Source: Psammoneis japonica (Eukaryota). Taken from it: a stretch of DNA of 64,000 nucleotides. The stretch spans positions 248,001 through 312,000 of the forward strand of contig QPGO01000082.1 in the NCBI GenBank assembly GCA_008632985.1, read 5' to 3'. The translations under genes and the position numbers were made by a program. Under the pieces are notes generated by a model. The model was not told the origin of the DNA, made no database searches, and saw only the letters and a list, made by a program, of their open reading frames with translations. Positions within the stretch are counted from its first letter, which is position 1. Every line of letters starts with the position of its first letter. This document shows, one piece after another, positions 3,861-54,745 of this stretch.

Positions 3861-4015
3861 TTGCGAAACAAATATCATAGTTGAATATCTGAGCCTGTGC
3901 AAATAGGGCCCTACTACTGTACCGTGTAAAACGACTCCATGTACGGAACTGTATCATAGCTTTTCATCCGCCCCTCCTGTCAAAGGCTAGCAAGTGATTC
4001 ATTTTCAGAGAAATA

Positions 4016-5931: not shown

Positions 5932-6357
5932 TGGAGACCTACCCATGTATTGGAATCGAAGACAAAGGATGGTTTCCACTACTCGCTGCAGGGAGCAAAA
6001 GAACCAAAGTGCTGTACTACAGTAGAGACCTGCCCATAAATGACCAGTTGAAAGCAAGAGCTTTCGGAATCAAAGACCAAGATTGACATGCTCATTACTG
6101 AATTTACAGAGAAAACAGAAGAAGCAGTAGAAAGTCCAAACCACTGCAGAGCATTAGGCCCCAATTTCGCCTTACTTAAAGGGCTGCCAGTGTTAATAGA
6201 GCAAAACTACTACGGTACTCCTTTCCGTACCCATCATGCACGCAACGATACGATGAATGCAATGTAACTATAAATGTATTGTTTCTCAATTAATAATATC
6301 GTACGTCTTTAACAATCCAATAACTCACAACGAAAGTCACGTTGAACAAAGCTCGGT

Positions 6358-8660
6358 TTAGCCACTGTAAGCAAAGAAGTTCATAAGGATGTCCGTGCCT
6401 GTCTGACGCAAGTCAGCACTGTCCTGTTTGTTGAAACAATCCTGAAAGGGCTTCATCAGCCCAGCCTGTTCCATCTCAAACCAGCACTCAAAGTTCACTG
6501 AGAGTACCTTGAGGGCATCGAATGCCGCGGTCAAAACATGAATATTGACTTGGTGCAACAGCATGGCATTCACAAGTGCGCTACATCCACCAGCTTCGAT
6601 GACGCTCAGGGTATCATCGAGCGATCCCAACACGCAACAAGCGTACTTTTGGATGTTTGGGTTTCTCTCATGACGTTTCATTGCGTCGACAATTATCTTC
6701 AAACTACCAGACTCGGCGATTTCACTGCTGCTCGAGCCAGAGCCGTTTGAAACATCGAGTAACGACGTAAACGCCTCCTCGACAGCAGCAGGCTCTTCCT
6801 GGTTTTGTAACTGTTTCAGCAAATCAGCGACAGAGACGTCGTTCATGCTAAAAGTACGAAGACTACCACCCGTATCCTCGAATTCGTCTCTCAGGGACGA
6901 CACCATGGCTTTTGCCAGTGACATACGATCTCGAACGATGTTGGCGTCATTACGACAAACGGGGTCCACAGAGTGGGTCGCTGCCGATTGGAGCAAAGGC
7001 TCCAAGTCACGATCAAGCTGCAACAGTGTGTGAACATTGACGTCGTTGTATGTGTAGTTCTTGAGGGCAAAGCACGAAACCGACATGACTGACTTGACTG
7101 ACATGTTGGATCGATGAGCTTCCATGGCATTTACCACTGCTTCAAGTTCGTCCCTCGTTGCCCTGGCCACCTGTGAACCATCCACTTCAATCGACACATT
7201 GGACAAAAAGACGACTCCGTCTCGTTGAATGGCCTCTACACGACGTTGGTGATTCATCGAATCCAATACAAACAACTTGACGTCCAGAGCTACGTACTCT
7301 TTTCGAATCTCGGTATCCGGTGACATGGCTCGAAGAGCCCCGATGGCCGCCTCTACCACGTGCGCATCTCTGGGATGCACCTGAAGAGCTCGGAGAACTC
7401 GAGAGACGGAGCCTGCCTTTGACAAGACACGATGATTCTTCGGGCTGCCAGCCAAGGCCCGAATAATACCACAACCACGTTCTTGCACAAGGAGAGCGGT
7501 GAGGTGCATCTTCATGGCTAAAAGAACGTCCTCCAGGGCAGTCGATGAGATGAAACTTTCCCTGACGCCCGCGTTGGTCTTGCAAAAGTTCCACACAGTA
7601 CCAAGACAGAACACTTGAATGGCTTCCGCATCGGGATGCGATTTCATTGCGTGAGTTAATACGTCCACCGCAAAGTCAGGATTGCCAGTTGCTGTTAAGT
7701 CCTTCACCAAGGTGTCAAGTTCATTCAGAGTGCTTTCAATCACCTCCTGAGAGTCTCTGGTGACTTGTCGGGATGAATCTCCAGCAGAGTCGAGAGCAGA
7801 GCCGTTTGATACAGGCTGGGAAGGTGTAGGAGAAGTATGCGTGGAATCGCCTTCTGATTCAGAGTCAGATATGTCCCCAAAGTCAATTTTGGAAATATCC
7901 ACCTCAATCAGAGTGGATCTCCGAGTCGGTCGTCTACGACTGTCAGAGTGGCGTTTGTCAAACATATCCTCCAACGAACTAGCTTCGGAAGCAGCGGAGA
8001 AGCGCTTCCCAGTTTCTGGCTCTGTTCGCTTCCCTTTTTCTGACATTTGAGCACCATGCTTGCTGCTTGAATTGGCAAGATCTTGACTCTTCATCAGGCC
8101 ATCGTCTTCCATATTTGTAACTTCTGCTAAGGTCGACATGGCCTCGTTCACTCTAGATGAAACTGACTGGAGTGACTTTGCCTCTGTTTTTTCGCTCTCT
8201 CAAAGCCAATTCGAGAGGAGGCACTCGTCATACGGTTTGCCATGATTCGACTCACAGAACCGCCACCTGTTCCACTCGACAGTTGCCGGAAACTAGTCAT
8301 CTTCCCGCCGGGTGGCAGTCTCGGGTCTTTTTGCGGGTGACACAGCAAACAGACGCCATTGTAGCTCTCCCCAGTGACGTTTCGAGGTTCTTTACTGGAT
8401 GACAGGGGATTAAATCGAGATCTTTTGACATCATAAATCCGCACTGGTTCTCCCATACAAGTCAAACAAAAGCCCTGGCGCTTTCGGAGCTCTTCAATCT
8501 GTTCTCGACGCAACACCGCACCGTCGCTACTCAGGCACATTTCTGTATATGATAGTGTCATGCGCATCGGATCTCCTGACTTTTTTGGAGGACGTTGGCT
8601 TCTAAACCGCTTACTACTCTTACGCGATGCCACTAGGGCAGCGCGTGGGTCGTCCGCCAT
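6358..8660 (-). CDS. Armadillo-repeat protein with N-terminal Cys-rich domain; frameshift or intron near 8150-8200
   Basis: ORF 8148-8660 (GFCLTC...GVCLLC) abuts ORF 6358-8151 containing repeated AMxxH...VQxxGC ARM-type units. Confidence 0.75.
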
Positions 8661-8965
8661 GGTCCTTGATACGTCGACGGCTGCAAGTAAAAGAAGAGGT
8701 CACCTCTTGCCTCTTGCGACTTCGAAACTTGAAACTTGCGACGAACCTCGTGATGATGTTGTATGCTGTCGTTTTTCTCATAAAAAATTTGTGTTAATGT
8801 CCGCCGGAACTGTACTACTGAAAAGATAACGTAGCCTTCTACGAAAAGGTTTATCTGATATCTACATGTATGAAGTATATTACAAAAAGGTATTTAAGAT
8901 CAGACATAAACTGGTCACCGGTCTTCGGTGACTGCGATGCCGGTAACCTTACAGTGCGACTAACT

Positions 8966-9096
8966 GTAGCTTGCTCTACTCTCTAGCTAGCTAGCTCTCT
9001 AGATAGAGTAGAGCACTGTTTGACAGTGCCAGAGAGCAGGGCCCTAGAGTAGAGAGTGACGGACATGACCTGACTCTCTCTGCCATCTAGCTAGAG
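8966..9096. repeat. CTAG/TAGAG-rich low-complexity tract with an inverted repeat
   Basis: gctctactct at 8973-8982 and its reverse complement agagtagagc at 9005-9014 flank ctagctagctag. Confidence 0.7.
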
Positions 9097-9099
9097 ACT

Positions 9100-12000
9100 C
9101 CTGCCCTTGTCCTGCCTGCAACAAGAAAACAAATGCAGCACAGGGGGGCCTGGGCAGATTTCTGGTGCAAAATTTAAACAGAAAATCGCGTGGGAAATCT
9201 CACTCGTGGTGTTTTTCCCCGTGCTTTGCGAATCACAGGCAGACCATGACCTCAAGGAATCGATTTCAGTCACAACTGTCAGTTGACACTTTGATGTCCA
9301 TTGCACCAACCTCACAAAGTTCAACGAAAGTGAGGTGACCCAATGGGCTTTTGTTGCTTCCTCTCATTCTTCCAAAGAGGAGCAAAGCAACAACAGCCAA
9401 CTGGACAGCTTCATTGCTGTTGATGCATCAAGGATCATGCCTTTGCTGCTGCACTGGCTGTGCTTGTGTGCTTTGCTTGCAGGAAGATGAGTGACCAAGC
9501 GGTGCCAAATGCGGAGGCAGGGCAGCCTCCACCAAGACAGAACACAAACTGGCAAGGCCAAAATGATGCTGCACCACTGGCAGTGCAGCAACCTCTGTCA
9601 GTGGGCAACATGCCACCACTGCCTCAGGCACCAGTGCCACCCATGGTGCCAAAAGTGGTGCCTGCAGTGGGAGGACAGCAAGGAGCACAACAACCTCTGC
9701 AAGCACACAGCCAGCACCTCAGATTGCACCACCACCACCACTGGTCACACGCAATTGCCAGGATCATCACAAAAATGCTGGAGCGAATGATCCATGGCTT
9801 CCATTGGGCCTGTGCAGATTTCATGGCAGACTTTGCAGCCCCATCACAGGGACAGTTCCAACACAACCCGGCTGCCCTTCATGGGCAAGTCATGGCAACG
9901 TCAAGTCATGACATGCCTGTGGCATGCACAACGCACTGTCACACCCAAGATGATGCCAACGAGGGTGTCACACAAGTCATGCACCACATGTTGCTGCTTG
10001 CCTGCTCATGGCAATGGGGCCACTGGAGCCATGGGATGGCAACACCTGTGCTGTTGTGGGTGACATGGCACAGGGACAGTTTGCCCTCACCCCTGTCAGT
10101 GATGCTGCATTTCAGTTGGCGCCACATGGAACATGGGCACCAATGCATGCTGTGCTCCAGCAGCATGTTGCGGTGACACCCAAGGGACTGCACTCACACT
10201 TGTGGTTGCTGATGCCACAGATTCTGAGAGGAGGTGCACACCCAATGCAGCCATTGCAGCCAAAGGTGGCACGCACAAGAGCAGTCCGATGTCATTTGCT
10301 TTAAATGCTGTGACTTGTTTGCCAGTTTTCTTGTCCAGCAGCCGGAACACCTCCACCACTTGGTTCTTGCAGCATGTTATGTGGCACTTGGTCTTCACAC
10401 CCTTTGGACTCAGGATGTTTGCTGTTGCGGGTTTTGACCCCAGCTTCATGTTGCCCCAACCTGGCACAGTGCAGTCCTTGTCCAGGGTGTTCACTCTTGT
10501 GTTTGTGGATGGGCCAATCTTGATCTTTGCCAGTCACACATTGTGTGCCAATCTCCAGCTTGCTGCCATGCCAAGGGCAGAGCAGTTGTCAAGGACCATC
10601 TCATCAGCCTCAATGCCCATGCTGGTCTGGCTCATGCTTGTCTCTGGTCACTCATTGACCAGTTGTGACCCATGCCAAGCAGCTCCCTTGCTCCAGATTG
10701 AACATGTCAATCTGGTGGCATTGATGCTCACATCACTGTCCACCAAAGAGTGGTCATCATTGCCATCTCTTGTCAGTGCATGACTCTGCCCTCTCAGATC
10801 TGGTTTCCTTCTGGTCTTTTTGAAACAGTCATTGGCAGCTGCCTTGTCCTTGTGTTGGCAATCTGGGGACTTGTGGTCTTCCTTGCTGCAACAGTGACAC
10901 ATTGTCTTGCCTTGTGTGTCACCCTTCTGGGCATGGCTCTGGATCTTGCCCTTGTTCCCATTCTTGTCCTCACCATTCTCATTGTCACAATGGTCAGGAT
11001 TCTTGGCACATTTCTGCTTGTTGCCCCACTCATGATTGAGCAATGCATCCATTGCTCTGTCCAGGTCTTTTGGGCATGCATCATTTCCCAGACTGCACAG
11101 TCTCTCACAAAACTTTGCTTCAATGTCTTGCAGCAATGGCCGTTGCTGTTCTTGATGAACATGAAAGCAGTCCAGGCCTCAAATGCCATCTTCTTCAGCT
11201 CAGCCTGCTTGCCAGTGCCACTTGTCTTGTGCTCCTTGGTGTTCTCAATGAACCCATTTAGCATCTTGCCAGCACCCAGACCATCTCTGGTGGAGTCTTG
11301 TTGGTTCTTGAATCTTTTGACAGGCAATCTGCAATGGACTCATTCTCTTGTTGCCTCACCTGCAGTGTGTTCTTCAGGGAAATGCACAGAACAGATGTTG
11401 ATCATCCACAATCATGGCAAATGCCTTTGATTTGTTCTCTTCAAACCGTCTCAGCTTGGCACAGCAATCTTTGGATTCTGCATGATGCTTGCACTCACAC
11501 TGTTTGTTCTTGTGTTCCGTGTCCTTTGGGTCAGCCTTGCATGTGGAGTCATCTTCATTGGGTGTGATCTCTGGCTGTTTCAATTTTGGCTTTTCTGCCA
11601 TAAAGTCAGGATGCGTCATGTCCTCTGGGGACCTTGCCACACATTTGCCCTGTTTAAACTCCTTCTGTGTGCATCTGCTGATCTTCTCTTTGACATCTTT
11701 GCATGTTGCATTGCACATGTTGCTGTTCAGGGTTGAAGGATGGAAAACTTCATTTCATGCTTGAAGGACTTCTTGTTCTTGGTGTGGCTCTTGTTGCCTT
11801 TTCCACCATGACCCTTGTGTTGATCATGGTCTTTCCCAAACCTCCCATGTTCTTTGTTGCTCATGGTGCAGACATCAATGATCTTCTGATGGACTGATGG
11901 TCAGGTGTGCACTCAACATGAGCAAACAACTCTCAAGAGTGAATGTTGAACCGGCAAGTCAATGTCACCAAAAGAAAATCCCACCAGGCTTCCTGTGCAG

Positions 12001-15000
12001 TGCCAATGGCCAAATCTCATGGCAGATCAGGAGGGAGAAACACCAACAGATCTTTTTTAGGACTCTTGTCTCACATGTTGAATGGCTGGAGTGCCTTCTG
12101 CCAAAAGCAAATTTGCTTCTTCTCTTGCCACAAAACTCAAGATCTTCAAGCTTCAGCAATCTCTCAGCTTTGCTTTTGAAGAGAAGACAATGTGATGAGG
12201 ACAAATTGAGCTTCCAAGCTTGACAAGAAGAGCTGCTGTGACTGTTGCCACTGTTTGGCCACTCTAACAAGTTGTCACATTGACTGAGCTGTTTGTTTGC
12301 CACTGTTTGTTTTGGTTTTTCCTTCATGGGAGTCAACTCTTTTACTCCAAGAAGAGCTGGAGTCATGTTGCACTCACTTGGTGATGGCAGCATGATGCTG
12401 ACAGTTTTGCCATGTTCCACCTTCAAGCCCAGTGTCACCTCCCCTTGAGGGCACTGAATGGCAGCCAATGAAAGTTGAGTTGTTTCTGGCTGTGCAATCT
12501 CAGCACTGACAGATGATGTAGAGGCATGCAATGTCATGGCAACAACAGCTCAGTTGAATGATGAAAAGAAGAGTGCAGCAACAATGAAGTGATCAAAGGT
12601 GCTGGTTTTTTTTCTGTGGTGCCCAGAGGGCAGCTTTGCACTCATTTTGTGCCAAATTCATGAAGAAACCTGCGTGCTTTTGTCATTTTTTGACTTGGTG
12701 CGGCAATTCTTGTGGAGGGGCAGAGCGGCTCCCTGTTTGGGTGCCAGGAGCTGAGCTGGGATGAGGGCATGTGTGGGACCCTTAGAGGCACATGTGAGTG
12801 GCTTTGACAACTGCGGTGCTCATGCTTGCATTTGCAAAACCACATGCTTCAGAGCATGGCTTCTGACACTTGTTCGCCAGAGCCATGCAGCTGTCAACCA
12901 GAGTGCTGCCTTGGCTTCTTTGCCAAGCAGCCCATCACATGAGATCATGAAAGGACTGAAATGATGCCATCACCCAAGGCAAGGCTCAAGATGCCTGCTG
13001 GTGGACTTTGGTGATTTTGCAAGAAAAATCAAGTGGACCCATTGCTTGCAGCTGCTGGATTTCCACCCAAGAATGCAGTGCAGTCTGTGCATCACTCCCA
13101 CCTGCCTCATGTCATTTCAGCAAAAAGTGCAATCAACCTGCTTTGCACAGGAGATTTCTTGAAGCACATGCAAGCACTTTTCAGGTGAGCAAAAGTGGGG
13201 CAAGTGGGCTTTGTTAAGAAAAAATGTTGGAACACCTGTGTCACGGGGACAGGGATTGCAAAGAACCTGGGCCCATTGAGGAAAAGATGCTTTGACTCCT
13301 GATGTGGTTGACTCAAGTGACTGGTCTCTGGCAGGGAATTTCCTCTGTCACCAACCCCTTGCCTCTGCTTTCACCTCCTTTTTTAGAGTGAGTAATTTGG
13401 TTTGTCACTTGACATGTTGTTCAGCATCACTGGTCAGCTGTTGTTGTCAATTTGTGAGTTTGTGGTTTGCACTGACAACCTCCAGGTGACATTGAACCAG
13501 AAAATTGATGTTGCCAAAAGGGGGCCCTGCTGAGCTTCCTGTGGCACTTGCCAGGTTGCCTGAAGTTGTCAGCACAAACTCCAAACTCAAAAATGACAAC
13601 AGCAGCAGTTGCCCAGCACAATGCACTGGGTGACAAATCAAATGAGCCAAGTGAGCCAAATGATTCACTCCAAAGTGTGAGATAAAAATGGTGATGAAAG
13701 GTTGGCAACAGAGAAAAATCTTCAGCAAACAGTGGCTTCACTTGGTTCACCACATTTTAGAGCCAAAGCATCTTTTCCTCAGAGGACCCAGGTTTCTTGT
13801 GGTCCCTGTGATCCAGATGTGCCCATCACACCCCTGCAGCTCACACCAGCATTTCTAAAATTGGGGAAAATGGTGCTGGGGAGAATCCCCTCTGGCGGTG
13901 TCGTGGCAACCAGATCAGCACCAGCAAAACCTGCTGTCATCTTGTCTCAGAGCACTGACACCCTCCAAACTACAGCACTGCAGGTTGGCACGTTGTCCCT
14001 CATCAGAAAAGTCAATTGTGTCATAGAACAAGATGGCTGCTCCTTGCACATTCTCCACAAAGCACCCAGCAAAGGTGCAACAGATCCTTTCAAATGGGGG
14101 TCTGCTCAGCGGAACACTGGGCAGCGTCTTGATCGAACCACTGGTTTTCAAGGGAGTCAAATCAGAGAGCTCTGCATTGTGACAAGTCCATCTCAAAATT
14201 GAGCTTGTTGCATTGATGTCACAGTTGAAGGTGAGGCTGGCTGTGCTGCCCAATTGCACCGTCCATGCTCCAAACAAGCCAATGATGACTCACATTGTTC
14301 TTGGGACCTTTGACATTGATCTTCACAAGGGGCCACAAACCCCACATGCATCCATGCCAAAGGTGGGGCAACTGCCTGACAACCATGTGCTCAATTGGCC
14401 AGCAACACTGCTGTTTGTGATGCTCAAGACACCCACCACAATGACAATGACAGCACAACATGCAGCACCATTGAGGCAACCGCCAACAATGTTGCCAGCA
14501 CAATGCTCAAGACAGCCACTGGCAACAATGCCTGCTCAGTGCTTAAAATGTCCACTGACAACATTGCTGGTGCAACAATGGAGAAACTGACTTGCAATGT
14601 TGCGCCAGTGTTGTGCTCATCCAAACCAACATTTGAGTTTGAGTTGATGCTTGCTGACTCCAAACTTCCTTGCACCAAGTTGGGGCATTGCTGCCAGGCT
14701 TGTCATGCAATGGCAAGCAGCTCAAGCTGGTCCACTGTGCACCCAATGGCACTGCTTTGAGTTGTCTGCCCTGTTGGTGCAGAGGTGAGCCCAACAAGGA
14801 AATGACAAATTGCAAACAACAAAAGCAATTGCAGCGGTGCTGCGGTGTGTTGTTTTTTGAAGTTGTGTCCAAAATCTGGTGTTTTTTGTATGGGTTTTTG
14901 TGCAATGGCTTTGGGGTCACCCAGAAATGGGGTCACTGCTTTGCTTGAGGAAGAGAAAGCAAGACATTTTTGTGTGACATTTTTTGCCCAAACAGCAATG

Positions 15001-16315
15001 CCTGCTTTGGCAAGAAATGTGCTGCATGTGCAAAATGGCACACACAAGACACGTGCAAGAAAAAATTCTGCAACCCCATGTGCAATGATTGCCATCTGTC
15101 ACTTGCTGCATGCCTTCTCTGCTGTTGCAGCTGATGCACTCTCCAGAGATGATCATGTTGTGCAATGCAAAACATGGGCCAATGAAGCGTTCACACAGCT
15201 CCTTGTTTGCACAGCTCCATTTTCACACAGATGTGCCAGTCTCGCAATTTCTGCAAAATGTCTTTCAACAACCTGCTGTGCCAGTTGCTTGACAATGTGC
15301 AAGAGGGTTGCAGTGCTGGTCTTCTGACTTGAGCTCCTCAGCAGCTTCAGAAAAAATTGCTGCACTGCATGATTTGAAGCAAAGTTGGTTTGTGATGACA
15401 CCAAACCATCTCATGGCAACAAGGCAGTTGAAACAGATTGACCCCTTGACATGCTCCAAAGATTCTTGGCTGCATGGCTTTCCCCTTCACTTGTGTGGCT
15501 GGGAGTGTGAAAATGGGCACAATGGCTGAGCTCTTGCAGCAGAACAAGGCATGACCTTCTGGGTCTTGGCATGTCAAAAAACAAGATCTGTTGTTGAAAA
15601 AGCCAAAAACAATGCTCAAACATTTGAGTGCTGCTGAGCCAACAGCAGGTTGGGAAACTGAAGAAACAAGAAGAACTTCAGAAAGATTCTTGTCAAGAAG
15701 CAGACAAAGTGCAAGTGCTTGATGCAGAAGAAGCCAAGGAGCACTCTGTGGCAGATGACAACAAAACAGGAGAAGAAGAGCCTCTTGGTTTTTGAACTTG
15801 GACAGCAGCCAGTCAACATCAAAGGCGCTGTTTGTGGGAACAGGCCATGTGCAATTTTAAAAGCAGGGCAGCACCCAGAAGCAGTCAAGGCTGTTCAGAG
15901 TCTAAAGCCCAGCAAAGCATGCAAGTTGCCACAAGAAAATGTTCTGCAATGTGCAGCACAGTGCAGGTTGTCAACAACTGGTGGTTGTTGTCCAGCCAGA
16001 CTCCCAAAGAAAGGCTCAGAAAACACTTCTTGTGCATTTTTCTTCCCTGCAAGGATTGCACTGCAGACAACATCAATGTGTCCACCAGCTGTGGTGCAGC
16101 TGGCAATCATCAACTTGTGTTTGCAGCTCAAATGAAGGGTTTTTGCAACACAGGGTTTCCTCCAAAAACTGTCACAGCTTTGAAGCATCGCCATCTGCAC
16201 AGAGAGAAGTGATTTGCAACAAACCCAGAAGTTGTGTTGTTGAAGATTTGATGGGCACAAAGCTGTTGCTTTGCTGTTTTTCACACAACCACTGCATTGT
16301 TGTTTGTGTCGGTTG
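9100..16315. mobile_element. Old degenerate transposon block, depleted of TpA and CpG
   Basis: Very few TA or CG, saturated with TG/CA; spurious Cys/His-rich ORFs in all six frames; contains a Copia gag relic. Confidence 0.75.
10100..11870 (-). pseudogene. Copia-type gag / zinc knuckle / protease relic
   Basis: Fragments ATCKDVKEKISRCTQKEFKQG, SLGNDACPKDLDRAMDALLNH, CHCCSKEDHKSPDC (CCHC knuckle), VLDNCS (protease-like) and ANILS, broken by frameshifts. Confidence 0.65.
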
Positions 16316-16694
16316 TGCAACATGCGTTGTTATGTACGTATTATATATGTATATCTATATATTAAAAAAAAGTATATTTCAATCGTACGTCAATCGTGGG
16401 TTCGTACGAAGTACAGATCGGTCACACAGAAGTGATCGGATGTCGAGAATCGCAAATGCGATCGTACGATGATGTTGACATCTTATGTGTCAATGTCAAT
16501 CGTATCCGGACAATCTGTTGTCACGATCATATTCTCCGAAAGGCCTTTTGTCTGTAGGAGCAGTACAAAAGGTTTAGGCCATTGAGAACCCATTCGGAGA
16601 AACCCAAAATGATTGCATGGAAATAATTCTCATAATTTTCACTTTTTATACTTGATTCTACTTTCGTTTATACTCGTTCTTCGAGCATAGTGCA
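16316..16694 (+). repeat. Gypsy 5' LTR
   Basis: Near-identical to 21113-21492; begins tgcaa and ends gtgca. Confidence 0.95.
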
Positions 16695-16730
16695 TTGTGT
16701 ATACACACCACAGAAGGTAATAAGTTCAAG

Positions 16731-17885
16731 ATGAAGCTTTCACCTCATGCAACCAACGCTAAAACTTCGTTAAGGCAGGAGAAAATCGTTCCTCAACCGC
16801 TGGAATCGAACTCCGAGCCGAAGAGCCTCAAACCGAGCCAGTGCCTCAAGATGGAGCAACGTTTTCATCCCGAGAAGAAGGATAGCCGTACCTACACCAT
16901 CAATGTCGAGCACTACAAGAAACAAGGTGTCCCCAAGTTTGTCGAATTTCTCAAGAGCTACGATCAACTTCCAGTGGGCCAGAATGTCAGGAAGCAATCT
17001 GACAAGTTTCGTCTCATGCGCATGTTACTCCAAGGAGACGCTCTACGTGCTTTCGAGAATGCGGCAGCGAACCTTGAAGACGAATCTGCAGAAGGAAGCT
17101 TCGAGAAATGCCTGCAACATCTCACGAGGCATGTGTTTCCCAAGAACGCACTTTCGGTGCAGAAACGTTATTTGCGTCGTGATCTCAAGAAGCCGGAGTC
17201 CATGAAAGTACGCGAAATTGCTGCTTGGGTCCAGGAAGTCAACGAAGACCTCAAGTTCTATCCTCCCTTTGGGAAGGAACAGAAGATCGAGGACGACGAG
17301 CTCAAGGACATCCTCTTCAATCTTGCACCTCAAAAGTGGCAGCGTCAGTCGACCGTCCAGGGTTTCGAAATTTTGAAACACACCTGTGACGAGTTGGTTG
17401 AGTTCTTGGAGCGCCCAGAGGTCGCAGAAGACATGTTCGATGGCATTCATGCCAAGGCTGATGGCAGTGGCGGTGCTGCATCAAAAGCCAAGAGTGGCTC
17501 CCAACGTGGTTCCAAAAATGGTCACCAACATGGTGCCGAAAAATCTCAGTCCGAGAAGTGGTGCATTTCATGTGAGAAATCCACTCACAACACGGACAAG
17601 TGCTGGTCGATCAAAAGACTTGCGAAAGAACGCCATGGGAACTGTGAACCCGACCCGAAACGGCGCCGTTCAAATGGCAATCGCACGTGGTCTCGTCGCG
17701 ACAACGACAACGCCGCTCGCAAAGAAGAGTTGAATGCTGTGGCGATCCAAGCAGTTCAAAAAATGCTCAAAGCGAGTTCCTCGAACAATGATGAAAAGCA
17801 CAAGAGCAAAGATTGTGATTCTGATGCCCTTGACGAGGAGAATGATCAGTTTGAAAAAATGATGCGCAGCGATTCTGAGGAATGA
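16731..17885 (+). CDS. gag: Gypsy gag
   Basis: LLQGDAL...VFPKNALSVQKRYLRR capsid-like region; CISCEKSTHNTDKC knuckle. Confidence 0.85.
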   Translation: MKLSPHATNAKTSLRQEKIVPQPLESNSEPKSLKPSQCLKMEQRFHPEKKDSRTYTINVEHYKKQGVPKFVEFLKSYDQLPVGQNVRKQSDKFRLMRMLLQGDALRAFENAAANLEDESAEGSFEKCLQHLTRHVFPKNALSVQKRYLRRDLKKPESMKVREIAAWVQEVNEDLKFYPPFGKEQKIEDDELKDILFNLAPQKWQRQSTVQGFEILKHTCDELVEFLERPEVAEDMFDGIHAKADGSGGAASKAKSGSQRGSKNGHQHGAEKSQSEKWCISCEKSTHNTDKCWSIKRLAKERHGNCEPDPKRRRSNGNRTWSRRDNDNAARKEELNAVAIQAVQKMLKASSSNNDEKHKSKDCDSDALDEENDQFEKMMRSDSEE

Positions 17886-20800
17886 CTTGCACCGCAAGAG
17901 GAGTCTTGCGCTCCACTGGACATCAGGAAGCCCAGAAAAAGGGCCAAAGTAATTTGTGCTAGTCCAGCAGTCGTCGCCCATGTGAACACTTCATCAGGCA
18001 AAGCGAAAAACAAGCCTCTGCACATTCTCCTCGATGGCAGAACATCGTCAACCACAATTTTGCGCAAATTCACGCGGAAACTCAGAACCAAAGCATCCGC
18101 CACCAAACTCTGGGAAACCAAAGGAGGGCTCTTTACGACTGACAGTCGATGTAAGATCCAATTCTCCTCACCCGAATTTGACAAACATGAGATGATCGAA
18201 ACAACGGCACATGTTGATGGCTCCCCTTCTTCTTCAAGTTGTTGTGACATGATCATGGGACGCGACTTAATGTCAAGTCTTGGGATGACATTGGACTTCT
18301 CGAATGAAGAGATTAAATGGGAAGATGCAACTGCTCCTGTGAAGAATGTTGATGCACTCTTCGATGCCGATGTTTTTAAGTTGATTGCCGATCATGTTGA
18401 GGAATCTCATGCAGTGATTGGTCTTAATGACAGGGTCAATCGGATCCTTGACTCAGACTGTCACACTGCAAACCTCAACAATGTGACTGCAGCAGCTGCT
18501 CATCTAACTCCTGAAGAGCAGAAGCAGCTGAACTTCCTCTCAAAAAGATTTGAAAACCTTTTCGATGGTTCTCTGGGCAAATGGACCAGGAAACCGGTGG
18601 ATTTGAAGTTGAAATCGGGCGTGAGTCCGTGTCATGCCAAACCATTTCCCGCACCACAAGCCTTGGAGGCGACCACTCGTAAGGAGGTTGAAAGACTGTG
18701 CAAGTTGAAAGTCTTAAGAAAAACAAACTGTTCTGAATGGGCGGCTCCAACCTTTGTTCAACCCAAGAAAAATGGCAGAGTTTGGTTCTTGTCCGACTTT
18801 CGTGAGCCAAACAAGAGGTCAATTCGCACTCCGTTTCCTCCACCCAACATTCAGGACATGCTGCAGAAGCTCGAAGGCTTCATGTGTGCAACGTCCCTAG
18901 ATTTAAACATGGGACACTGTCATGTCGAATTGACGCCGCGTGCACGTCGCTTGTGCACGATCGTCATGCCTTGGGGCAAATGTGAGCACTGTAGACTCCC
19001 GATGGGAATCTGTGGAGCTCCAGACATTTTCCAAGAGCACATGAGTGAGCTCATGGCAGGTCTGGAGTTCGTCAGAACTTGTGTTGACAACACATTGTGT
19101 CTTGCAAAAGGTGATTTTCAAGACCACCTCAAGAAGCTTGAAACAGTGTTCTTGCGCCCAGAACAAGCCGGATTGAAGGTCAACGCCGAGAAGTCCTTTT
19201 TTGCTAAACCCGAAGCAGACCATCCAGGCTTTCACATCACCCACAAGGGCATCAGTCCGATTCCAAAAAAAAGTAGAAGCGATTCACGCGATCGCAACTC
19301 CTAAAACTCGCAAGGAATTGCGACGCTTTGTCAGCATGATCAACTGCCATCGAGACATGTGGCCTCGACGATCTCATGTTTTAGCTCCTTTGGCCAAACT
19401 CACTTCTGCCCAAGTAAAGTGGCAATGGACCGAAACAGAACAAAAAGCCTTTGAAAACATGAAGCGCGTCATCTCCAAAGACACACCACCATCACACCCG
19501 AATTTTAACACACCCTTTGAGATGTGCACCGATGCTGGCAATTCTCAATTGGGGGCGGTTGTTGCTCAGAAAAACTGACCAATTGCCTTCTACAGCCGCA
19601 AGCTGAATGGAGCACAGACGCGTCACACTGCAACGGAAAAAGAGCTGTTGACCACAGTGGAAACGTTAAAAGAGTTCCGCAATGTGCTGTTTGGCCAACA
19701 GATGAACACATGTGCGGATCACAAAAATCTCACACACAAAAAATTTCACAACGGACAGAGTCATGCATTGGTGTCCAATGACAGAAGAATGCAGCCCCAA
19801 AATGACATGCCTTGAGGGCAAGGCAAATGTTGTCGCAGATGCGATTGGCCGACTTGCCATGAAGAAAATAGAACCTGTGGAAACCCTCAGCACAGAAGAG
19901 CTGGCTGAAAAGGTCCCACCAAAATCCTGCGACAATGTCTTTCCGTCAAATTACAAAGTTCTTGATTGTGAACAAAAACGGGACAAAGACACTCTCTCCC
20001 AATTGTCAAATGAGACGTTTCATGCGAAGACTTTTCGTGGAGGCGAGCGAGACCGGTTGCTCGTGTGTCATGAGGACAAAATTGTCGTCCCGAGGACGTT
20101 GCAAAGGCAGTGACAGATTGGCATCATGTGCACCTTCTTCACCCTGGCACAAATCGAACAGAAGAAACAATCTCACAACACCTGTGGTGGTCCACCTTGC
20201 GTGAAGACATACGAAAATACGTGTCGAGATGTGAGGCGTGCCAAAAATTCAAAAAGAAACACAAGAAATGTGGACATTTGCCTCCTGAGTGCGCAGAATC
20301 CGCACCATGGGAACGACTGTGTGTGGACCTTGTTGGGCCACACAAAATGCGTCGCAAGGGAAAGAAAGAACCCCCAGTCCTGAAATGTTTGACAATGATC
20401 GATCCAGCAACCGGATGGTTTGAAGTTGTGGAAATCCCAAATGAGGAGTCCATGACTGCAGCTGGACTGCCAGAACGAACATGGTCAAGCAGACATCCTT
20501 GGCCATCGTCAATTGCATGTGACGGTGGAAGTGAGTTCATCGGACACCAATTTAGAGAAATGGTGCAAGATGATTGTGGCATTAAAGTCAAGCCTGTAAC
20601 TACACGAAATCCACAAGCAAACGCAATTGTTGAACGCGCACATCAAGCACTGGGGAACATGCTCCGTACATTTGATTTGCAACATACACCTCTAGATGCT
20701 GAGGATCCTTTCGCTGGAATGCTGTCAGCGGTAGCATTGCGGTACGTTCTACGTATCATACCACTACGCAAGCTACACCAGGACAACTAGTCTTCAATAG

Positions 20801-21086
20801 AGACATGATATTTAACGTCCAACATGTCGCAGACTGGAAATTAATCCAGCAGCGAAAACAAGATATCATAAATAAAAATAACGCTCGAGAGAATGCTCGA
20901 CGTACTCCTTACACGTACAGAGTAGGAGAAAAGATACTACTCGAGAAAGACTCGCAAAAATTAGAACAGCCCTATGTTGGACCGTACGTAATAACAACGG
21001 TACATACTAATGGCACAGTACAGATCAAACGCGGTGACGTTATTGACACTGTCAATATTCGTCGGATAATACCGTTTAACGACTGA
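17886..21086 (+). pseudogene. pol: Gypsy pol (protease, RT, RNase H, integrase), hypermutated and frameshifted
   Basis: ILLDG protease; WAAPTF..PKKNG; SLDLNMGHCH; RLPMG; CVDN at 19080 in place of YVDD; TDA..QLG; HPG...C..C; CVDLVGP; NPQANAIVER; PYVGPY tail. Frameshifts in A-runs near 19265, 19575 and 19740. Confidence 0.9.
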
Positions 21087-21112
21087 CTCTAATGTGCAAT
21101 TAGGGAGGCGAA

Positions 21113-21492
21113 TGCAATATGCGTTGTTATGTACGTATTATATATGTATATCTATATATTAAAAAAAAAGTATATTTCAATCGTACGTCAATCGTGGGTT
21201 CGTACGAAGTACAGATCGGTCACACAGAAGTGATCGGATGTCGAGAATCGCAAATGCGATCGTACGATGATGTTGACATCTTATGTGTCAATATCAATCG
21301 TATCCGGACAATCTGTTGTCACGATCATATTCTCCGAAAGGCCTTTTGTCTGTAGGAGCAGTACAAAAGGTTTAGGCTATTGAGAACCCGTTCGGAGAAA
21401 CCCAAAATGATTGCACAGAAATGATTCTCATGATTTTCACTTTTTGTGCTTGATTCTACTTTCGTTTATACTCGTTCTTCGAGCATAGTGCA
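21113..21492 (+). repeat. Gypsy 3' LTR
   Basis: Matches 16316-16694 with about 10 transitions and one A-run indel. Confidence 0.95.
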
Positions 21493-24400
21493 GTTGGATG
21501 TTTGACTCTGGACACCACAATGTGTTCCCTGTGAAAAGTTTGGCATGTTGGAGAGCTGATGTTTGGGCGACACAAGATGAAGTGTCTTGCATGATGGACA
21601 ATCTGTCTCAAAAGGCTGTGTTTGTTTTCAAGCTTCATTTGTCAAAGTTGGTTGGAAGGATTTGAAAATGCAAAACATGCAACTTGTGAGCTGGCAGCAC
21701 ACTGACACACTCGGTTTGCACACAACTGTCTGGCACCAGCCCCACTTGCTCTGTCAAAGTCAGGTCCCAAACAATGTGCTTCATCATTGCTTTCTTCTTT
21801 GTGCTCCAATTCCATCAGTTGGTCATTGTGTGCTTTGTTGCCTGGAAAGTCTTTCACACAACCAGCAGCTTTGACCAAATGCTTTGTGCAAGTCTCTTGC
21901 TTGTGACACACTCTTTCTTTAATCTTGCGGCTGGCCTCTTCAAAGCAGGCTTCACATTGCTGCCACAACTGCCAAGCACCTTGTCAGGATTTTGCAGCAT
22001 TCTTAGATGCTCATCTGCTGCAAAGCTGTGCTTGCACAAGGCGACATTCTTTCCAAGAACAACCATGAGTGCCAACTCCAGTTTTGGTTCTTCCACACCA
22101 ACAACTTCAACAGCAAAGGAGCACAAGCTGGTCTTTGAGAAACACTCCAGCAGGTTTTCACATTCTTGCAGGGCACCTGTGAGTTTTGAGCTTGGTGCCT
22201 TTCTGTGCTTCTGGATTGAGAGATCAGCTGGGACAGTCAGCAGCACCCACGTCAAGTGCCTTGTGCTTTGGAAAAAATTGAGTGTTTTCTTTTGTTGTTG
22301 TTGTTGGGGCATGGTTGCTGGCACTTGGCATGCCCCAGTCTGCTGCTCAAGAGTGCTGGTGCAAAGCAAGGTGAGCACTTCTTACACTTGCCCAGGAGAA
22401 AGAAATGCACCCAATGTGGGATTTCTTGATTTGCTGCATTGGAGCAAATGGCAGTGAGGCCACAGCATCTTTTGGATGTTGGCAAAGAGTGCTGCCACAG
22501 CAGCAGCAACTCTGTCTTCAGCAACAGCCTCAAGCCAGAATTTCTGCACTTTTAACTGACACAAATGTTGGTGCTGAAACCCACTTGATGGCACTTGCAA
22601 GAAATCCACACTGGTGCAAACACAACACAGCTGCACATGCTGCGCTGGCTGTTGTTCATTTTCTGGTGCTGTGCCAGAGTCACACACCAAAACAAGGTGT
22701 CTCCAACCCTTGTTTGTGCATTTGGCATTTTCACAAACTCTAAATCATTGGCTTCAACTGGGCCACAATGTGTCATTGTGCAACTCTTGCTGTGCAGCCA
22801 CTTGCCCACTCAACTTTTTTCCATCTGCATCCAGTGTGGCAAAGATGGAGAGCAGGGGGCAACAACACCACACTGTTGCAATGGTGTTTCACCTCAGCAG
22901 CTTGCACACACACTGTTGTGCTCCCAAGAATCAGAGAATTTGAGGTGACTTCATGCTGTCATCTTCATCTGCAAGCAGCAATGGCAGTGCAAATGAAGCC
23001 ATGCCAACAATGGATTTCTTCCTCCCAAAGCAAGCAGGAGAAAAGAGCCCAAGTGTGGTTGGCATTGAGACAGACAGACAAGCCAGCAAAAATCAGAGCT
23101 GGTCAGTCCTGCTGCCTGTGACATGCTGTCAACGAGTTGTTGCATTGGGTGCTTGTGATGTGCACAGCTTTCTTTTCAACTCTGGCAACAAAAAACATGC
23201 ATCAACTGCATTTGAAAGAGTGCCAGAAGCAAGAATGCAGTTCTTTGTTGCAGCACAGAAGACAACCACAGCGGGTTGGACAGACATGGACACTTGGTGC
23301 CACTGGACTCTGCACCTTGGCTCACACCATTGGCTTGAGCACTGCATGGTCCTGGCAGTGTGCAGGGCAATGGGTGAAACAGGTGGATGAGCATGAGGAC
23401 CTCCTGGTTGCCTTGCACAAAGATGTGTTGTTTCACCTCACAATTCTCATGGGTTTGCATGGCACTGCACACTCCCTTTGCCTGTGCATCATTTTGGCAT
23501 GAACATCTGAGCCTTTGTCAGCTTTTTTCAGATGCTGCTGACTTTGGATGGAATTTCTTTTTTGCTCAGACAGGAAGAACACATCAGTGGCAGGCTGCCT
23601 CTGGTGCAGAACATCTCTTCACCAAACACAGCAATTTTCTCACTTGGGAAATCTGTGCTGAGAGTTGAACAAACATTGGCTGTCTCATTGAGAGAAATGA
23701 TTTTGACAAATTGTCACACTGTCACAGGTGCCCAGCTTGCAAGGGAAATGAAAAATGTGGAGACAACAGCAGCGCTGGGTTGGGCAAACAAAAGCTCACA
23801 CCCTGTGAGCAGCACACCACCTTTGCAGGTTTTTTTGACCCACTGACAGCTGCTGGAAGGCAAGGCAAGCTGTGAAGCTTGGCATCACAGCACTGCAATG
23901 ACAGGCACATTTTGAGGTTTGTGGAAGACATTTTCAAAGAGAAACCCAGAAGCATGCAGAAAGCAGTGTTCTGGAGCTTGGTGATGCAAAGAAAGCAGCA
24001 AATGAGTCTCCTTCAGGGACCACAATTTTGCCTGTTGCAGCTTCCACGGAGTGTGTGCACTGAAGATGTTGCAACTTGCTTCAAAAACAAATGCAAAGCA
24101 ATTGCAGGCATCACAGCAGTGGTTCCACACATTTCCTGATTTTTCAACATCACCATGCATCACCTTTTGACATTTCATTGAGAATCAACCAACCGTGGCT
24201 CCAAAGCATGTGGTGCTGGGATGGGAATCTAGCAAATGTGCTCTGGGAATGTCGACCATCTTGTTGTGGCAAATGATTTGACACATTGTTGTGCTGCCAT
24301 GAGTGGCCAGCTTTCCAGGAAAACAAAACATGTGGAAATGATGGATGCCGCTGGGGTGGGAAATGAAAGCTGACACCCTGCATGCAAGCAACACATCCAT

Positions 24401-26750
24401 GCACTGTTTCTTGCAGGTTTTTTTGACCTGCTGACAACAGCTTAAAGGCTGGACATGCTGTGGAGCTTGACAGTGTGATGCTGCTACAACAAACACATTT
24501 TGGCTTTTACAGAAGTTGTTTCTGAAGTTCAGAGAAGCATGTGAAAGCAACATCCTGGTGCTCAGTGTTGTGGGGAAATTGGCAAATGAATCTCCTTGAA
24601 AAACCCCATGACTTTGCCCACTGCAGTTTCTGGTTTGTGCACAGAACATGTTGCATCTCATTCCAAGAACATTCAAAGCCATTGCAGGTGCCATCGCCTG
24701 CCCCCCTGCATGTTCTGATTTTTCCACATTGCCAGGTGGCACCGCTTGATGTTTCATTAAGAGTCGCCTGACCATGGCTTCAAAATGTGATGGGACAGAA
24801 ATCTGACTCATGTGCTCTGGGAACACATCTCAGTGCTGCCGCAGAAAGCAAGGGTGCCATGGTCTCCAGCCTCTTTGCTATGGCATTGCTTCTTTTTGGC
24901 TCTCTCAGAGATCACCAAAAATGGCAATTGCTGTCTCAGATGAAGTGACATGGCAAAAGATCAATTCCACCCTCAACGCCATTTGCCACACCCTCTGACA
25001 TCTGGAGCAGCACATGGCAAACCTTTGAACAAATCTTGATTGACTTGCACACATGTTCTTCCAACACAATCCAAAGAGATGAAAGACATCAAAGGTTGCA
25101 GAGCTGAGAATCAGATGCAGAAGACCACCCAGAACCACAAAGCTGCTGTGGCGAGCAATGAAACATTGAAGAGTGTGACTTCTAAAGCCTCCACTCTGTT
25201 CTCACCTGCAAGATCCCTTGCCAAAAAGATTAGAAAGGTCGCTGGATGAAATTGTTGCATGAGAGCAGTGTGCGGAAGCTTTGGTTTGGGCACCCAACTG
25301 AAAGACCTGACAAGAGAAGAGCAAAAGGGAAACTCTCAACTTGCAAGAAATCCAAAAACTGGAGGCTGCACTTCCATGATGCAGCTGCACTGGGTTTGAG
25401 GATGAAGAACTGTCAAAAAACAGAAACAAGAGACCACCCCAAATCACACAGTTGCTGCAGTGAGACAAAAGACATGAAAGGTCACAGAGCTGAGAAACAG
25501 ACACAGAAGACCACCCAGGATCACAAAGTTGCTGTGGCGCACAATCAAATGTTGCAGAGTGTGACTTCCAAAGCCTCCGTTCTGTTCTCACCCATGAGAT
25601 TCCTTGCTAAAAAGATTGGAAAGGTTGCTGGGTGAAGTTGTTGCATGAGGATAGCACGCAGAAGCTTTCAATTTGGGCACCCAATTGAATGACCTGACAA
25701 GAGGGGAGCAAAAGGGAAACTCTTGACTTGCAAGAAATCTAAAGCTGAAAGGTTGCACTCCCTTGATGCAGCTGTGTTGGGTTTGACGATGAAGAGCAGC
25801 TGTCAAGAAACAGACACAGGAGACCACCCTGAATGATCACACAGTTGCTGCGGCAAGCAATGAAATGTTGAAGAGCACGCAACGGCCTTCAAGGCCTCTG
25901 CATTGTTCTTGCCTGTAAGATCCCTGGCTAAAAAGATCAGTGGGACAGTTGAGTGAAATTTTTGCATGAGAGTGGTGCACGAAAGCTTTCAGTCAGGGTG
26001 TCTGACTGGACGACCCAACAAGAGGGGAGCAAAAGAGAACTCTCGACATGCAAAAACCCAAAACAAAATGACGGGAATCCTGTGATGCAGCTGCAGTGGG
26101 TCAAGGATGAAAAGAGCACTTCTTGTGTGGACAGTTGCAGAAAAAGCACAGCACTTGACAGAGCAGATGGACTCCTCCAGTCTGTGGGATGTTGCTGGGT
26201 GCCAAGAACACACCACAGAAAATGAGGCACATCACTTGGCCAAGGCCGAAAGGCAAATTGACAGGACATCACTGGGTGGTCAACTCGGGACAGCTGATGG
26301 GCTGATTGAAGACCTGCAGAAGGCTCCTGAAAAGCACATCCCTTGGCTTTGCGGATGATCAAGGCAATGGGCATTGCCAGGTGTCAATCACAGGACAGCT
26401 GATCAGCTTGTCAATGGCACCACAGAGCTCAAGGTGCAGCCAATGAAAAGGGGTTGCCAAAAAATGCTGTGTCCAAGTGTGGACATTCCATTGGCTCTTT
26501 ATGTGGAAGTGGCTGATGTCAGTGATGGAGTTGGATCGGATTCGGATTCAGCGCAACAGTGGGAGCACTTTGATTCGGACTTGGTGCAGTGGTGCAAGAG
26601 GCAGAGCAGGTGAGCCAATGGCCGATTCGAATTGGTGAGCAGGAGATGGTGTCGGATTGACTGTGCAGCAGGATCGGGCTTGGCACGCTGTCGCCATGTC
26701 CCTCCAATGAACCCTCATCAAATTGATGGTTGCTGTGTGGGACAAGAGAG
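21493..26750. mobile_element. Continuation of the old TpA/CpG-depleted repeat block
   Basis: Same TG/CA-saturated composition as 9100-16315; no family assignable by eye. Confidence 0.65.
25085..26110 (+). repeat. Degenerate tandem repeat, about 3 copies of 320-390 bp
   Basis: Recurring agaccaccc, aaaaagat, ttgcatgag and gagcaaaag.gaa.ctct blocks near 25085, 25471 and 25810. Confidence 0.75.
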
Positions 26751-27622
26751 CTCAAGGTGCAGCCAACGAAAAGGGATTGCTAAAAAAATGCTACGTCCAA
26801 GTGTGGACATTCCCTTGGCTCTCTCTGTCCCAAGCAGAAGTGGCTAATATCGGTGATGGAGTTGGATCGGATTCGGATTCGGCGTAGTAGTGGGAGGACT
26901 TGGATTCGGACTCGGTACAGCAGTGCAAGAGGTGGAGCAGATGGGCCAAGCCGATTCGGAATTGGTGAGTAGGGAACGGTGTCGGGTTGTTTGTGTGGCA
27001 GGATCGGGCTCAGTACGCTGTTGCCAGATCCAACCAATAAACCCTCATCAAATTAAGTGTTGCTGTGTGGGACAAGAGAGCTCAAGGTGCAGCCAACGAA
27101 AAGGGATTGCTAAAAAAATGCTACGTCCAAGTGTGGACATTCCCTTGGCTCTCTCTGTCCCAAGCAGAAGTGGCTAATGTCGGTGATGGAGTTGGATCGG
27201 ATTCGGATTCGGCGTAGTAGTGGGAGGACTAGATTCGGACTCGGTACAGCAGTGCAAGAGGTGGAGCAGATGGGCCAAGCCGATTCGGAATTGGTGAGTA
27301 GGGAACGGTGTCGGGTTGTTTGTGTGGTAGGATCGGGCTCAGTACGCTGTTGCCAGATCCAACCAATAAACCCTCATCAAATTAAGGGTTGCTGTGTGGG
27401 ACAAGAGAGCTCAAGGTGCAGCCAACGAAAAGGGATTGCTAAAAAAATGCTACGTCCAAGTGTGGACATTCCCTTGGCTCTCTCTGTCCCAAGCAGAAGT
27501 GGCTAATGTCGGTGATGGAGTTGGATCGGATTCGGATTCGGTGTAGTAGTGGGAGGACTTGGATTCGGACTCAGTACAATAGTGCGAGAGGCGGAGCAGG
27601 TGGGCCAAGCCGATTCGGAATT
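26428..27622 (+). repeat. Tandem array of ~330 bp, about 3.6 copies (starts 26428, 26751, 27081, 27410)
   Basis: ctcaaggtgcagccaa...gtgtggacattcc...ggagttggatcggattcggattc repeated at 323, 330 and 329 bp spacing. Confidence 0.95.
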
Positions 27623-27695
27623 GATGTAGGATATAGTGTAGATACTTTTTTGGGCCCCAGGGTTGACGGAGCCATTGGATCGGTGTAGTTTTAGG

Positions 27696-44900: not shown

Positions 44901-45470
44901 GGGCGGCGGGGTGCTGTGCTGGCACAGGGAAATGATGCGCGCTCACTTTGGTGAAAAAGACCAAGCCATTTTGAGCCAGCCAGAAAAGCAAGTGTGTGAA
45001 TTGGTCAAAAGCTGCCTCTTGCACAACCCAAGCAGGAGCACTTTGCAGCCAACGTCACTGTTGCAAGAAACCACAAACCAGCACACACCACCCACCCTGC
45101 ACCCAAAGGGCCAGTCTTGAGAGAGATGCTGCTGGCCTGTCTGAGTGCTTGTCTACTGTACAGTTGCCCAGCTGCTTTCAACTGCTCTCTTGCAAGCTGC
45201 GGCCACCAGCAATCTCCCCAATGTGAAGCCATCCAAATGGCGACCTGAGAGATGATGATAAAAAAAAAACAGAGCACCAGTGACACTCTTGTGCTTCTAA
45301 CCCTCACCAAACACACCAGGATGGCTGATTTTGAGGTTTTGAAAAAGTCACACCAAGGCTCTTGAAAGGAGGGCCTCGGAGCAAAAAGAAGAAAAACATT
45401 CTCGCGCCGTTGTTCGGAGTTGTTCAAGTCAAGAAGATCTTGATGGGAGCTGATGATGACAACAAATTAC
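41960..45470. mobile_element. TpA/CpG-depleted block containing a short Copia-like LTR relic
   Basis: Compositional switch; internal direct repeats and gag fragment. Confidence 0.7.
42516..44268 (+). mobile_element. Internally deleted Copia-like relic: LTR-like repeats ~42516-42788 and ~44011-44268 around gag remnants
   Basis: Shared acaatgttgcagtgaaagatc, gcaatccatgcggcaagtt and cagttggcaagc; aaaggag purine tract before the second copy; KEAFNTIVGQCTKAIRHKVE and LLKDLHQQF..VDNCP gag-like fragments. Confidence 0.7.
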
Positions 45471-54468: not shown

Positions 54469-54745
54469 TGACAGAAAATGAAGGCAAATGGCAAGAATTC
54501 AAACAACAACTCCTTGCTGCTGTCTAAATGGCAGATGAGTCTCCACTCAGAGACCGTTGCAGGAGCCGAAAGACGCGCAAGTCGGCACAATCGGGCTGCT
54601 GTCATTGTTCTTGTGAGCCTTGTGGCTCGAAAGCAAACTGCATCGCGCGCGAACGCGTGGAACTAAAAGCACACAAAACTGTGCGCGGCAAACTAAACAG
54701 CGCGCGACATTTCGCGCGCACCTGAATCCTGTTCAAATCCTGTCA
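54469..54745 (-). repeat. Copia 3' LTR
   Basis: Colinear with 61303-61579 without indels. Confidence 0.95.

Follow-up and report, generated by a model that had tools for sequence, protein, structure and literature searches.

Traces of a probable TpA-directed hypermutation in the long terminal repeats of a young Gypsy retrotransposon from a diatom

Introduction

Hypermutation directed at the TpA steps of foreign DNA is known from a single 2026 preprint on a rhizarian alga, the chlorarachniophyte Bigelowiella natans (Mettrop et al., bioRxiv 10.64898/2026.01.13.699255). As reported in its main text, an integrated giant virus and a virophage undergo de novo TpA to TpG/CpA mutation at about 6e-7 per site per generation, a rate which in clonal lines is about 1000-fold above background, and the genome contains 124 TpA-poor, CpA+TpG-rich clusters enriched in reverse transcriptase (RT) and DDE domains. 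An ADAT2-like adenine deaminase is proposed there, so far unproven. A term search of the main text of the preprint found no mention of CpG, long terminal repeats (LTRs), flanking context or diatoms, and our literature searches for TpA hypermutation in diatoms or other algae gave only this preprint. In diatoms, CG methylation of transposable elements has been documented (PMC9998398). In this work we analyse a Ty3/Gypsy element (hereafter Gypsy) at positions 16316-21492 of a 64,000-nucleotide stretch of the genome of the diatom Psammoneis japonica (assembly GCA_008632985.1, contig QPGO01000082.1, positions 248,001 to 312,000 of the forward strand), which we call the window and to which all coordinates refer.

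The two LTRs of a retrotransposon are identical at insertion. LTR pairs are thus built-in before-and-after records, in which changes that follow integration, their occurrence in each copy separately and their flanking-base preference can all be read. We regard it as probable that the element is a young, non-autonomous Ty3/Gypsy copy whose LTRs have been changed independently of each other by a TpA to TpG/CpA process, together with a slower decay of CpG. Clear traces in a diatom would make TpA hypermutation a wider eukaryotic defence, and would open a tractable group to the search for its enzyme.

The Gypsy element and its LTR pair

The 5′ LTR (16316-16694, plus strand, 379 nt, with a TpA observed/expected ratio (o/e) of 0.87 and a CpG o/e of 1.66) and the 3′ LTR (21113-21492, plus strand, 380 nt) form a direct repeat pair, 97% alike, with TG...CA ends and with the letters GTTG on both flanks, a target-site duplication at 16312-16315 and 21493-21496 (plus strand). 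With the 5′ LTR as the reference for coordinates and letters given as 5′ versus 3′, the alignment contains 11 differing columns, which are ten substitutions and one A-run indel after 16363. All ten substitutions are transitions. Seven of them oppose TA to TG or CA, at 16321 and 16580 (C/T, CA vs TA), 16495 (G/A, TG vs TA), 16625 and 16634 (A/G, TA vs TG) and 16648 and 16650 (A/G twice, TATA vs TGTG); one opposes CA to CG at 16592 (A/G), and the last two letters form a TG vs CA double at 16618-16619 (T/C and G/A). The original prediction, made from the letters of the window, had listed the same differences, with 16494, 16624, 16633 and 16647 standing for the first base of the dinucleotide, and both the absence of transversions and the presence of one CA/CG site and one A-run indel are borne out by the alignment. 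Its statement that nearly every difference lies at a TA site stands for seven of the ten substitutions; one, and possibly also the double, comes from the slower CG to TG/CA process.

The changes are specific for a dinucleotide class. Under a null model of random transitions on the same LTR, the probability that all ten fall in pyrimidine-purine steps that swap TA or CG with TG or CA is 0.0025 (208 of the 379 possible transitions qualify), and that of at least seven being TA-linked is 0.011, or 1.5e-4 when the double is counted as TA-derived. The 171 other positions of the LTR carry no difference at all.

Between the LTRs, the internal region (16695-21112, plus strand) presents a gag-like open reading frame (ORF) followed by RT, RNase H and integrase, is interrupted by frameshifts and stops, and ends in a purine-rich tract (21102-21112, plus strand). 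Pfam matches were obtained for RVT_1 (17982-19304), RT_RNaseH_2 (19201-19578) and Integrase_H2C2 plus rve (20110-20790), so that the integrase lies 3′ of the RT, which is the Ty3/Gypsy domain order, and the best solved-structure match of the RT is the Ty3 RT (E 1.9e-27). The YxDD box reads CVDN and pol, besides containing stops, is divided among three reading frames. The element is therefore a member of the Ty3/Gypsy family, but a dead, non-autonomous copy, and the only one of its family in the window. The same family is absent among the protein-database matches, the best of which is 59% identical. When metagenomes were scanned for a degenerate LTR pattern of 28 nt, 0 matches were obtained, and a metagenome protein scan for relatives gave four short contigs of 48-58% identity, none with LTRs.

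Polarity of the changes

Taken alone, the ten substitutions could be read in the classical direction, as cytosine deaminations (CpA/TpG to TpA and CpG to TpG/CpA) of the type known from repeat-induced point mutation (RIP) or methylation decay, with TG or CA ancestral at the TA-linked sites. All ten can be written as C:G to T:A, and CpG decay is indeed at work in the window, where CG is opposed to TG or CA in both LTR pairs studied and CpG o/e falls to about 0.1 in the islands described below. The original prediction had proposed the reverse direction, from TA to TG or CA, and four independent lines of evidence from the same window speak for it: the conversion of tyrosines to cysteine or histidine, the double differences of a Copia element, the CA/TG swaps between repeats, and the existence of TpA-poor islands.

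Tyrosine is the only amino acid with codons that start with TA, and this uniqueness of the TAY codons (Y, pyrimidine) makes it usable as a test of polarity. The protease-RT frame of Gypsy was compared with 40 relatives of 44-59% identity, columns being taken as conserved when at least 70% of the 40 have tyrosine. At the 12 columns so defined, Gypsy has seven cysteines, three histidines, two phenylalanines and no tyrosine, whereas it keeps the conserved cysteine at both of two columns and the conserved histidine at four of five. The YLDD of Ty3 is aligned to the CVDN of Gypsy. The RT ORF has no tyrosine left, and the content of the frame, 0%, is to be compared with a median of 3.7% in 120 relatives among the matches listed. 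Two metagenome relatives (L001 and L002, 57-58% identity) read GYYH and WGKYEY where Gypsy reads GHCH and WGKCEH; in the YxDD region they have VYIDD and VHIDD, respectively, and Gypsy has TCVDN. Similarly, the 15 conserved-tyrosine columns in the RT-RNase H region of the Copia element show eight cysteines, two histidines, two tyrosines (YVDD included), two phenylalanines and one isoleucine. Conserved tyrosine has thus become cysteine or histidine at 10 of 12 columns in Gypsy and at 10 of 15 in Copia, and not the reverse. Read on the coding strand, cysteine arises by A to G and histidine by T to C; as both replacements occur, both DNA strands are affected.

A second test is offered by sites where one LTR has TG and the other CA, because such a double implies a palindromic ancestor, either TA or CG, resolved in opposite ways in the two copies. 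From the per-site rates, 0.219 doubles are expected in the Gypsy pair with TA ancestors and 0.0057 with CG ancestors, which in the classical direction would need both LTRs changed at one CpG. The palindromic ancestor suggested by the original prediction at 16618 is thus about 38 times likelier to have been TA than CG. The Copia element (54461-61579, minus strand, TpA o/e 0.13, CpG o/e 0.85) provides a larger sample. Between its LTRs (54461-54745, 285 nt, and 61293-61579, 287 nt) there are 19 substitutions, of which 18 are transitions and one is a transversion; among them are five TG/CA doubles, six CG vs TG/CA sites and one TA vs TG site. A model with CpG ancestors only, with a per-LTR loss of 0.15 derived from the CG singles, predicts 0.27 doubles against the five observed (P 8.7e-6), while the data are fitted by some 12 sites that were TA in the ancestor and of which each LTR has lost about 78%. 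Six repeat pairs of the window contain 100 adjacent double transitions, and CA/TG swaps, one of eight types that could occur, account for 62 of them, the next commonest type for 10; two repeat pairs of host DNA have none.

The two LTR pairs also give the relative rates. Per-site loss in the Gypsy LTRs is 0.111 for TA and 0.022 for CG, and in the Copia LTRs about 0.78 and about 0.15, so that the decay of TA outpaces that of CG by a factor of about 5 to 9.

TA- and CG-free islands

A further group of observations comes from the DNA around the element. Gypsy sits inside an island almost free of TA and CG, formed by a left part at 9200-16315 (TpA o/e 0.05, CpG 0.11, CA 1.90, TG 1.87), which was the target of the insertion, and a right part at 21493-26500, with internal tandem repeats whose copies show many CA/TG swaps; where each LTR begins, the change of composition is immediate, at its first base. 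A second island lies at 35000-39000 (TpA o/e 0.06, CpG 0.09) and a third at 42000-45000 (TpA o/e 0.05, CpG 0.13). Across these four stretches TpA o/e is 0.05-0.06, CpG 0.09-0.13 and CA and TG 1.8-2.05, with a balanced base composition, whereas the host stretches of the window have a TpA o/e of 0.49-0.61 and a CpG o/e of about 1. Hypermutation is therefore local and spares host genes, with TpA o/e at 0.05-0.13 in the islands and Copia.

RIP indices are commonly taken as positive for TpA/ApT above ~0.89 and for (CpA+TpG)/(ApC+GpT) below ~1.03. The islands give 0.00-0.16 and 1.8-2.3, with neither the TpA enrichment nor the C:G to T:A change at CpA that mark fungal RIP: old repeats in this DNA are depleted of TA, not enriched in it. 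Together with the fate of the tyrosines and the number of doubles, this renders the classical direction very unlikely. In this genome the direction is from TA to TG or CA, the reverse of RIP.

The limit of an altered zone can be seen in a tandem array of 3.7 units of 329 bp (26415-27639, plus strand) that spans an island boundary. Its innermost unit has TG or CA at sites that are TA or CG in the three outer ones, and as only that unit is in the TG/CA state, the mutated zone has a sharp edge, not wider than about 300 bp. The array was rejected as strict evidence of polarity, since its outer units may have been copied from one another recently.

None of the 59 island ORFs of at least 110 amino acids in all six frames has a Pfam match, and a search with one island ORF of 255 amino acids found no homologue. 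The loss of TA erases the stop codons TAA and TAG, and TG or CA in its place makes no in-frame stop, so that dead DNA retains very long open frames. The dead Copia element still has an open frame of 1928 amino acids (54693-60479, minus strand) with 0.5% tyrosine. Both this frame and the 59 of the islands are ghost ORFs, capable of misleading gene callers.

Sequence context of the surviving TA sites

The TA sites that remain are not a random sample. In the islands, YTAR (R, purine) accounts for 40 of 66 survivors and RTAY for 1; in the core of Gypsy the counts are 16 and 3 of 36, in Copia 18 and 4 of 44, and among the TA sites of host DNA 106 and 186 of 664. A duplex rule in which RTAY is preferred over mixed contexts, and these over YTAR, is the only one that holds. 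A single-strand target motif was rejected, since in a tally by hand of the LTR changes and tyrosine codons the mixed contexts favoured TAY six times and RTA five times.

Comparison with a public sequencing run

The locus is contained in a single public run, here called X1, of which 4875 contigs were aligned to the window; no RNA run was listed as containing it. In one of these contigs 16311 is followed directly by 21493, with an overlap of four letters, which makes it an empty site, at a depth of 127 compared with 137 in the neighbouring flank contigs; X1 is thus another strain or haplotype without the insertion, and the Gypsy insertion is young. The intact 4-bp duplication and the matching empty site also argue against LTRs coming from different elements, in agreement with the claim of the original prediction that each LTR was hit independently after integration; post-integration action is likewise visible in the Copia pair and in the tandem copies. 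The prediction that LTR-divergence dating would be inflated is well founded: every one of the ten substitutions falls at a hypermutable step and the 171 other positions are unchanged, which gives a divergence of 2.6% for a polymorphic insertion without change at ordinary sites.

The flanks of the insertion are also free of TA and CG in X1, and differ from the window at 52 of 3170 letters (1.6%). The classes of difference were counted on 35 flank rows among the 40 of 842 rows listed, leaving out one 3′ LTR row and four minor-contig rows. They comprise eight sites with CG in the window and TG or CA in X1, three with TG or CA in the window and TA in X1, two with CA in the window and CG in X1, two CA/TG doubles (four letters), 14 other transitions and four transversions. 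These differences indicate that decay of the island went on after the lineages split. Within 14500-16315 and 21493-23500, residual CG and TA sites have been lost in one haplotype or strain only, and the two doubles lie at 21866-21867 and 22890-22891.

These data bear on a purely technical explanation, according to which TA and CG, heavily modified, would have been miscalled as TG on each strand and the TA/CG-free DNA would not be real. Strand-symmetric miscalls at palindromic modified sites would indeed yield TG or CA from TA and CG alike. However, the same TA/CG-free flanks are found in X1, with only the 52 of 3170 letters different, which makes a base-calling artefact unlikely; moreover, the shift in composition at the LTR boundary takes no more than one base, a random consensus at each position would leave TA and CG chimeras, and Gypsy also carries ordinary frameshifts and stops. 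We give this explanation almost no credit.

A more serious alternative is that the LTR differences were imported as patches from other copies of the family, whether through gene conversion, through the use of paralogous reads in assembly or polishing, or through template switching. The family is present in high copy number, with a summed depth in X1 of 3,900-23,000 against 78-240, a low-copy depth, for the flanks, which belong to the island around Gypsy, and its copies differ from the window copy at 731 transition places and 99 transversion places. Under TA to TG/CA polarity, the five hits of the 3′ LTR all fall in a stretch of 32 bp (21416-21448; P 0.003 for random TA sites), a cluster that suggests either clustered events or a converted patch. 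Against such patches, the element retains an intact target-site duplication in agreement with the empty site, the differences occur in both LTRs and over 330 bp, and the same signature appears in the Copia pair and four other repeat pairs; in addition, variation imported in this way would still stem from the same TA-directed process. We consider this origin of the differences unlikely.

A mosaic element

Gypsy itself is a compositional mosaic, with TA-rich LTRs, first 600 bp and last 900 bp and a TA-poor, tyrosine-free core at about 16900-20600 (plus strand), where each 200 bp holds 0-5 TA, compared with 9-27 at both ends, at normal CpG. The TA-rich ends extend over 16316-16900 and 20600-21492, and in the latter tyrosine codons are retained in the integrase C-terminus. 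The mosaic suggests either recombination of a hypermutated with an unmutated template or a targeting of the core only. As the indels at 19265, 19738, 20102, 20736 and 21071 are polymorphisms common to several family copies, the core probably descends in its TA-poor state from a hypermutated, trans-mobilised lineage rather than having lost its TA in place.

Other features of the window

Between two host genes, the stretch 50251-51500 is TA-poor with normal CpG, and has overlapping open frames on both strands whose content could not be recognised; a short fragment that underwent hypermutation is a possible origin. That the host is a diatom is seen in the actin-related protein of the window, which shares 47-54% identity with proteins of Nitzschia, Seminavis, Mayamaea, Pseudo-nitzschia and Fistulifera, all diatoms, and 64% with others, and whose nearest Atlas cluster is mostly Bacillariophyta. 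A single N, at position 3374, occurs in the otherwise complete sequence.

Discussion

The history that we favour is one in which both Gypsy LTRs would have been identical at insertion and altered independently thereafter, by a process at the DNA level that would turn TpA into TpG or CpA, this is, an A:T to G:C transition on either strand, with a slower CpG to TpG/CpA decay alongside. The same two processes would be further advanced elsewhere in the window, with the loss of TA in Copia near saturation and the islands almost without TA and CG. TA was presumably the ancestral state at each of the Gypsy LTR sites, and the A:T to G:C polarity would extend to these sites themselves. By analogy with the proposal for B. 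natans, the chemistry may be adenine deamination in DNA, and the process could act as a defence against foreign or mobile DNA.

Several points weigh against this history. A reading with C to T only (CA/TG to TA and CG to TG/CA) covers the ten changes with one chemistry and is simpler on its face, and the polarity at the nine Gypsy LTR sites is assigned by analogy with the rest of the window. Five of the ten changed letters are crowded into 32 bp in one LTR, and in a high-copy family the ten letters could be polishing or conversion patches; as X1 has no copy at the site, it cannot verify them, and the technical independence of this run is assumed. The mosaic, in which most TA is gone from the core but not from the LTRs or the 3′ 900 bp, is unexplained by uniform mutation in place. 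Finally, the lack of any Pfam match in the 59 island frames and of a homologue for the 255-residue ORF leaves the islands without a recognisable origin.

Some consequences follow for the study of such genomes. Besides the inflation of LTR ages, heavily mutated elements are missed by domain searches, as with the 59 island frames, and very long open frames in dead DNA can mislead gene prediction.

A wider hypothesis may be put forward, more tentatively, as it is possible but less likely to be right than wrong. Diatoms and chlorarachniophytes could have in common an enzymatic, locally targeted defence that edits TpA steps in double-stranded genomic DNA, favours RTAY while leaving YTAR almost untouched, proceeds in clustered bursts without need of repeats and, combined with the decay of methylated CpG, leads to a TA/CG-free end state with long stop-free ghost frames. 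If true, this would be an old system of the SAR group (stramenopiles, alveolates and Rhizaria), or one transferred within it, instead of the peculiarity of one alga, and in its enzyme one would have a naturally occurring adenine editor of DNA, specific for sequence context. A low tyrosine content is also seen in a few environmental proteins related to the Gypsy RT (P0138, P0175 and P0173, 0.6-1.5% compared with the median of 3.7%), the metagenome locus L004:651-989 has 0.9% tyrosine with cysteine and histidine raised, and L002, as said, has histidine in the YxDD box. The same process may be active in other diatoms or in sediment eukaryotes.

Comparison with known systems

The APOBEC editing of vertebrate LTR retrotransposons (PMC4866542) resembles our case in being a deaminase-type hypermutation recorded in LTR elements. 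It consists, however, of C to U changes on minus-strand cDNA before integration, which are strand-specific (G to A) and the same in both LTRs. The changes in the diatom differ between the LTRs, affect both strands and run from A:T to G:C; the occurrence of both tyrosine to cysteine and tyrosine to histidine replacements is at odds with any strand-specific, pre-integration editing of the APOBEC or ADAR type.

With fungal RIP (RIPCAL, PMC2621366), the diatom process would share a transition-only, dinucleotide-preferring hypermutation of mobile DNA that destroys its coding capacity. The polarity is the opposite, since RIP makes TpA from CpA/TpG and the process described here destroys TpA. It also introduces no new in-frame stops, removing TAA and TAG so that frames stay open, seems not to require copy number, and occurs in a host that is not a fungus.

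The CpG methylation of diatom transposable elements (PMC9998398) would account for the slower CG to TG/CA component through deamination of 5-methylcytosine, but it cannot remove TpA, the faster-decaying of the two dinucleotides.

The closest system is that of B. natans, as far as it is set out in the main text of the preprint (bioRxiv 10.64898/2026.01.13.699255). There, the host is a chlorarachniophyte (Rhizaria), the targets are a nucleocytoplasmic large DNA virus (NCLDV) and a virophage, TpA o/e falls to 0.45 and the mutation rate was measured; here, the host is a diatom (a stramenopile), the targets are LTR retrotransposons and islands, the end state is far more extreme (0.05) and coupled with loss of CpG, and the evidence is comparative, with two haplotypes or strains available for it. 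In both, change is directed at TpA and gives TpG or CpA on either strand, as in the window at seven of the ten LTR substitutions plus one double and at 62 of the 100 adjacent double transitions. In both, the bias runs from A:T to G:C, for which the window offers the fate of the conserved tyrosines. In both, a repeated target appears unneeded, the NCLDV region of B. natans being single-copy and the islands of the diatom being at low-copy depth in X1. And in both, hypermutation is local, host genes are spared, and TpA-poor, CpA+TpG-rich clusters are found with RT and DDE domains.

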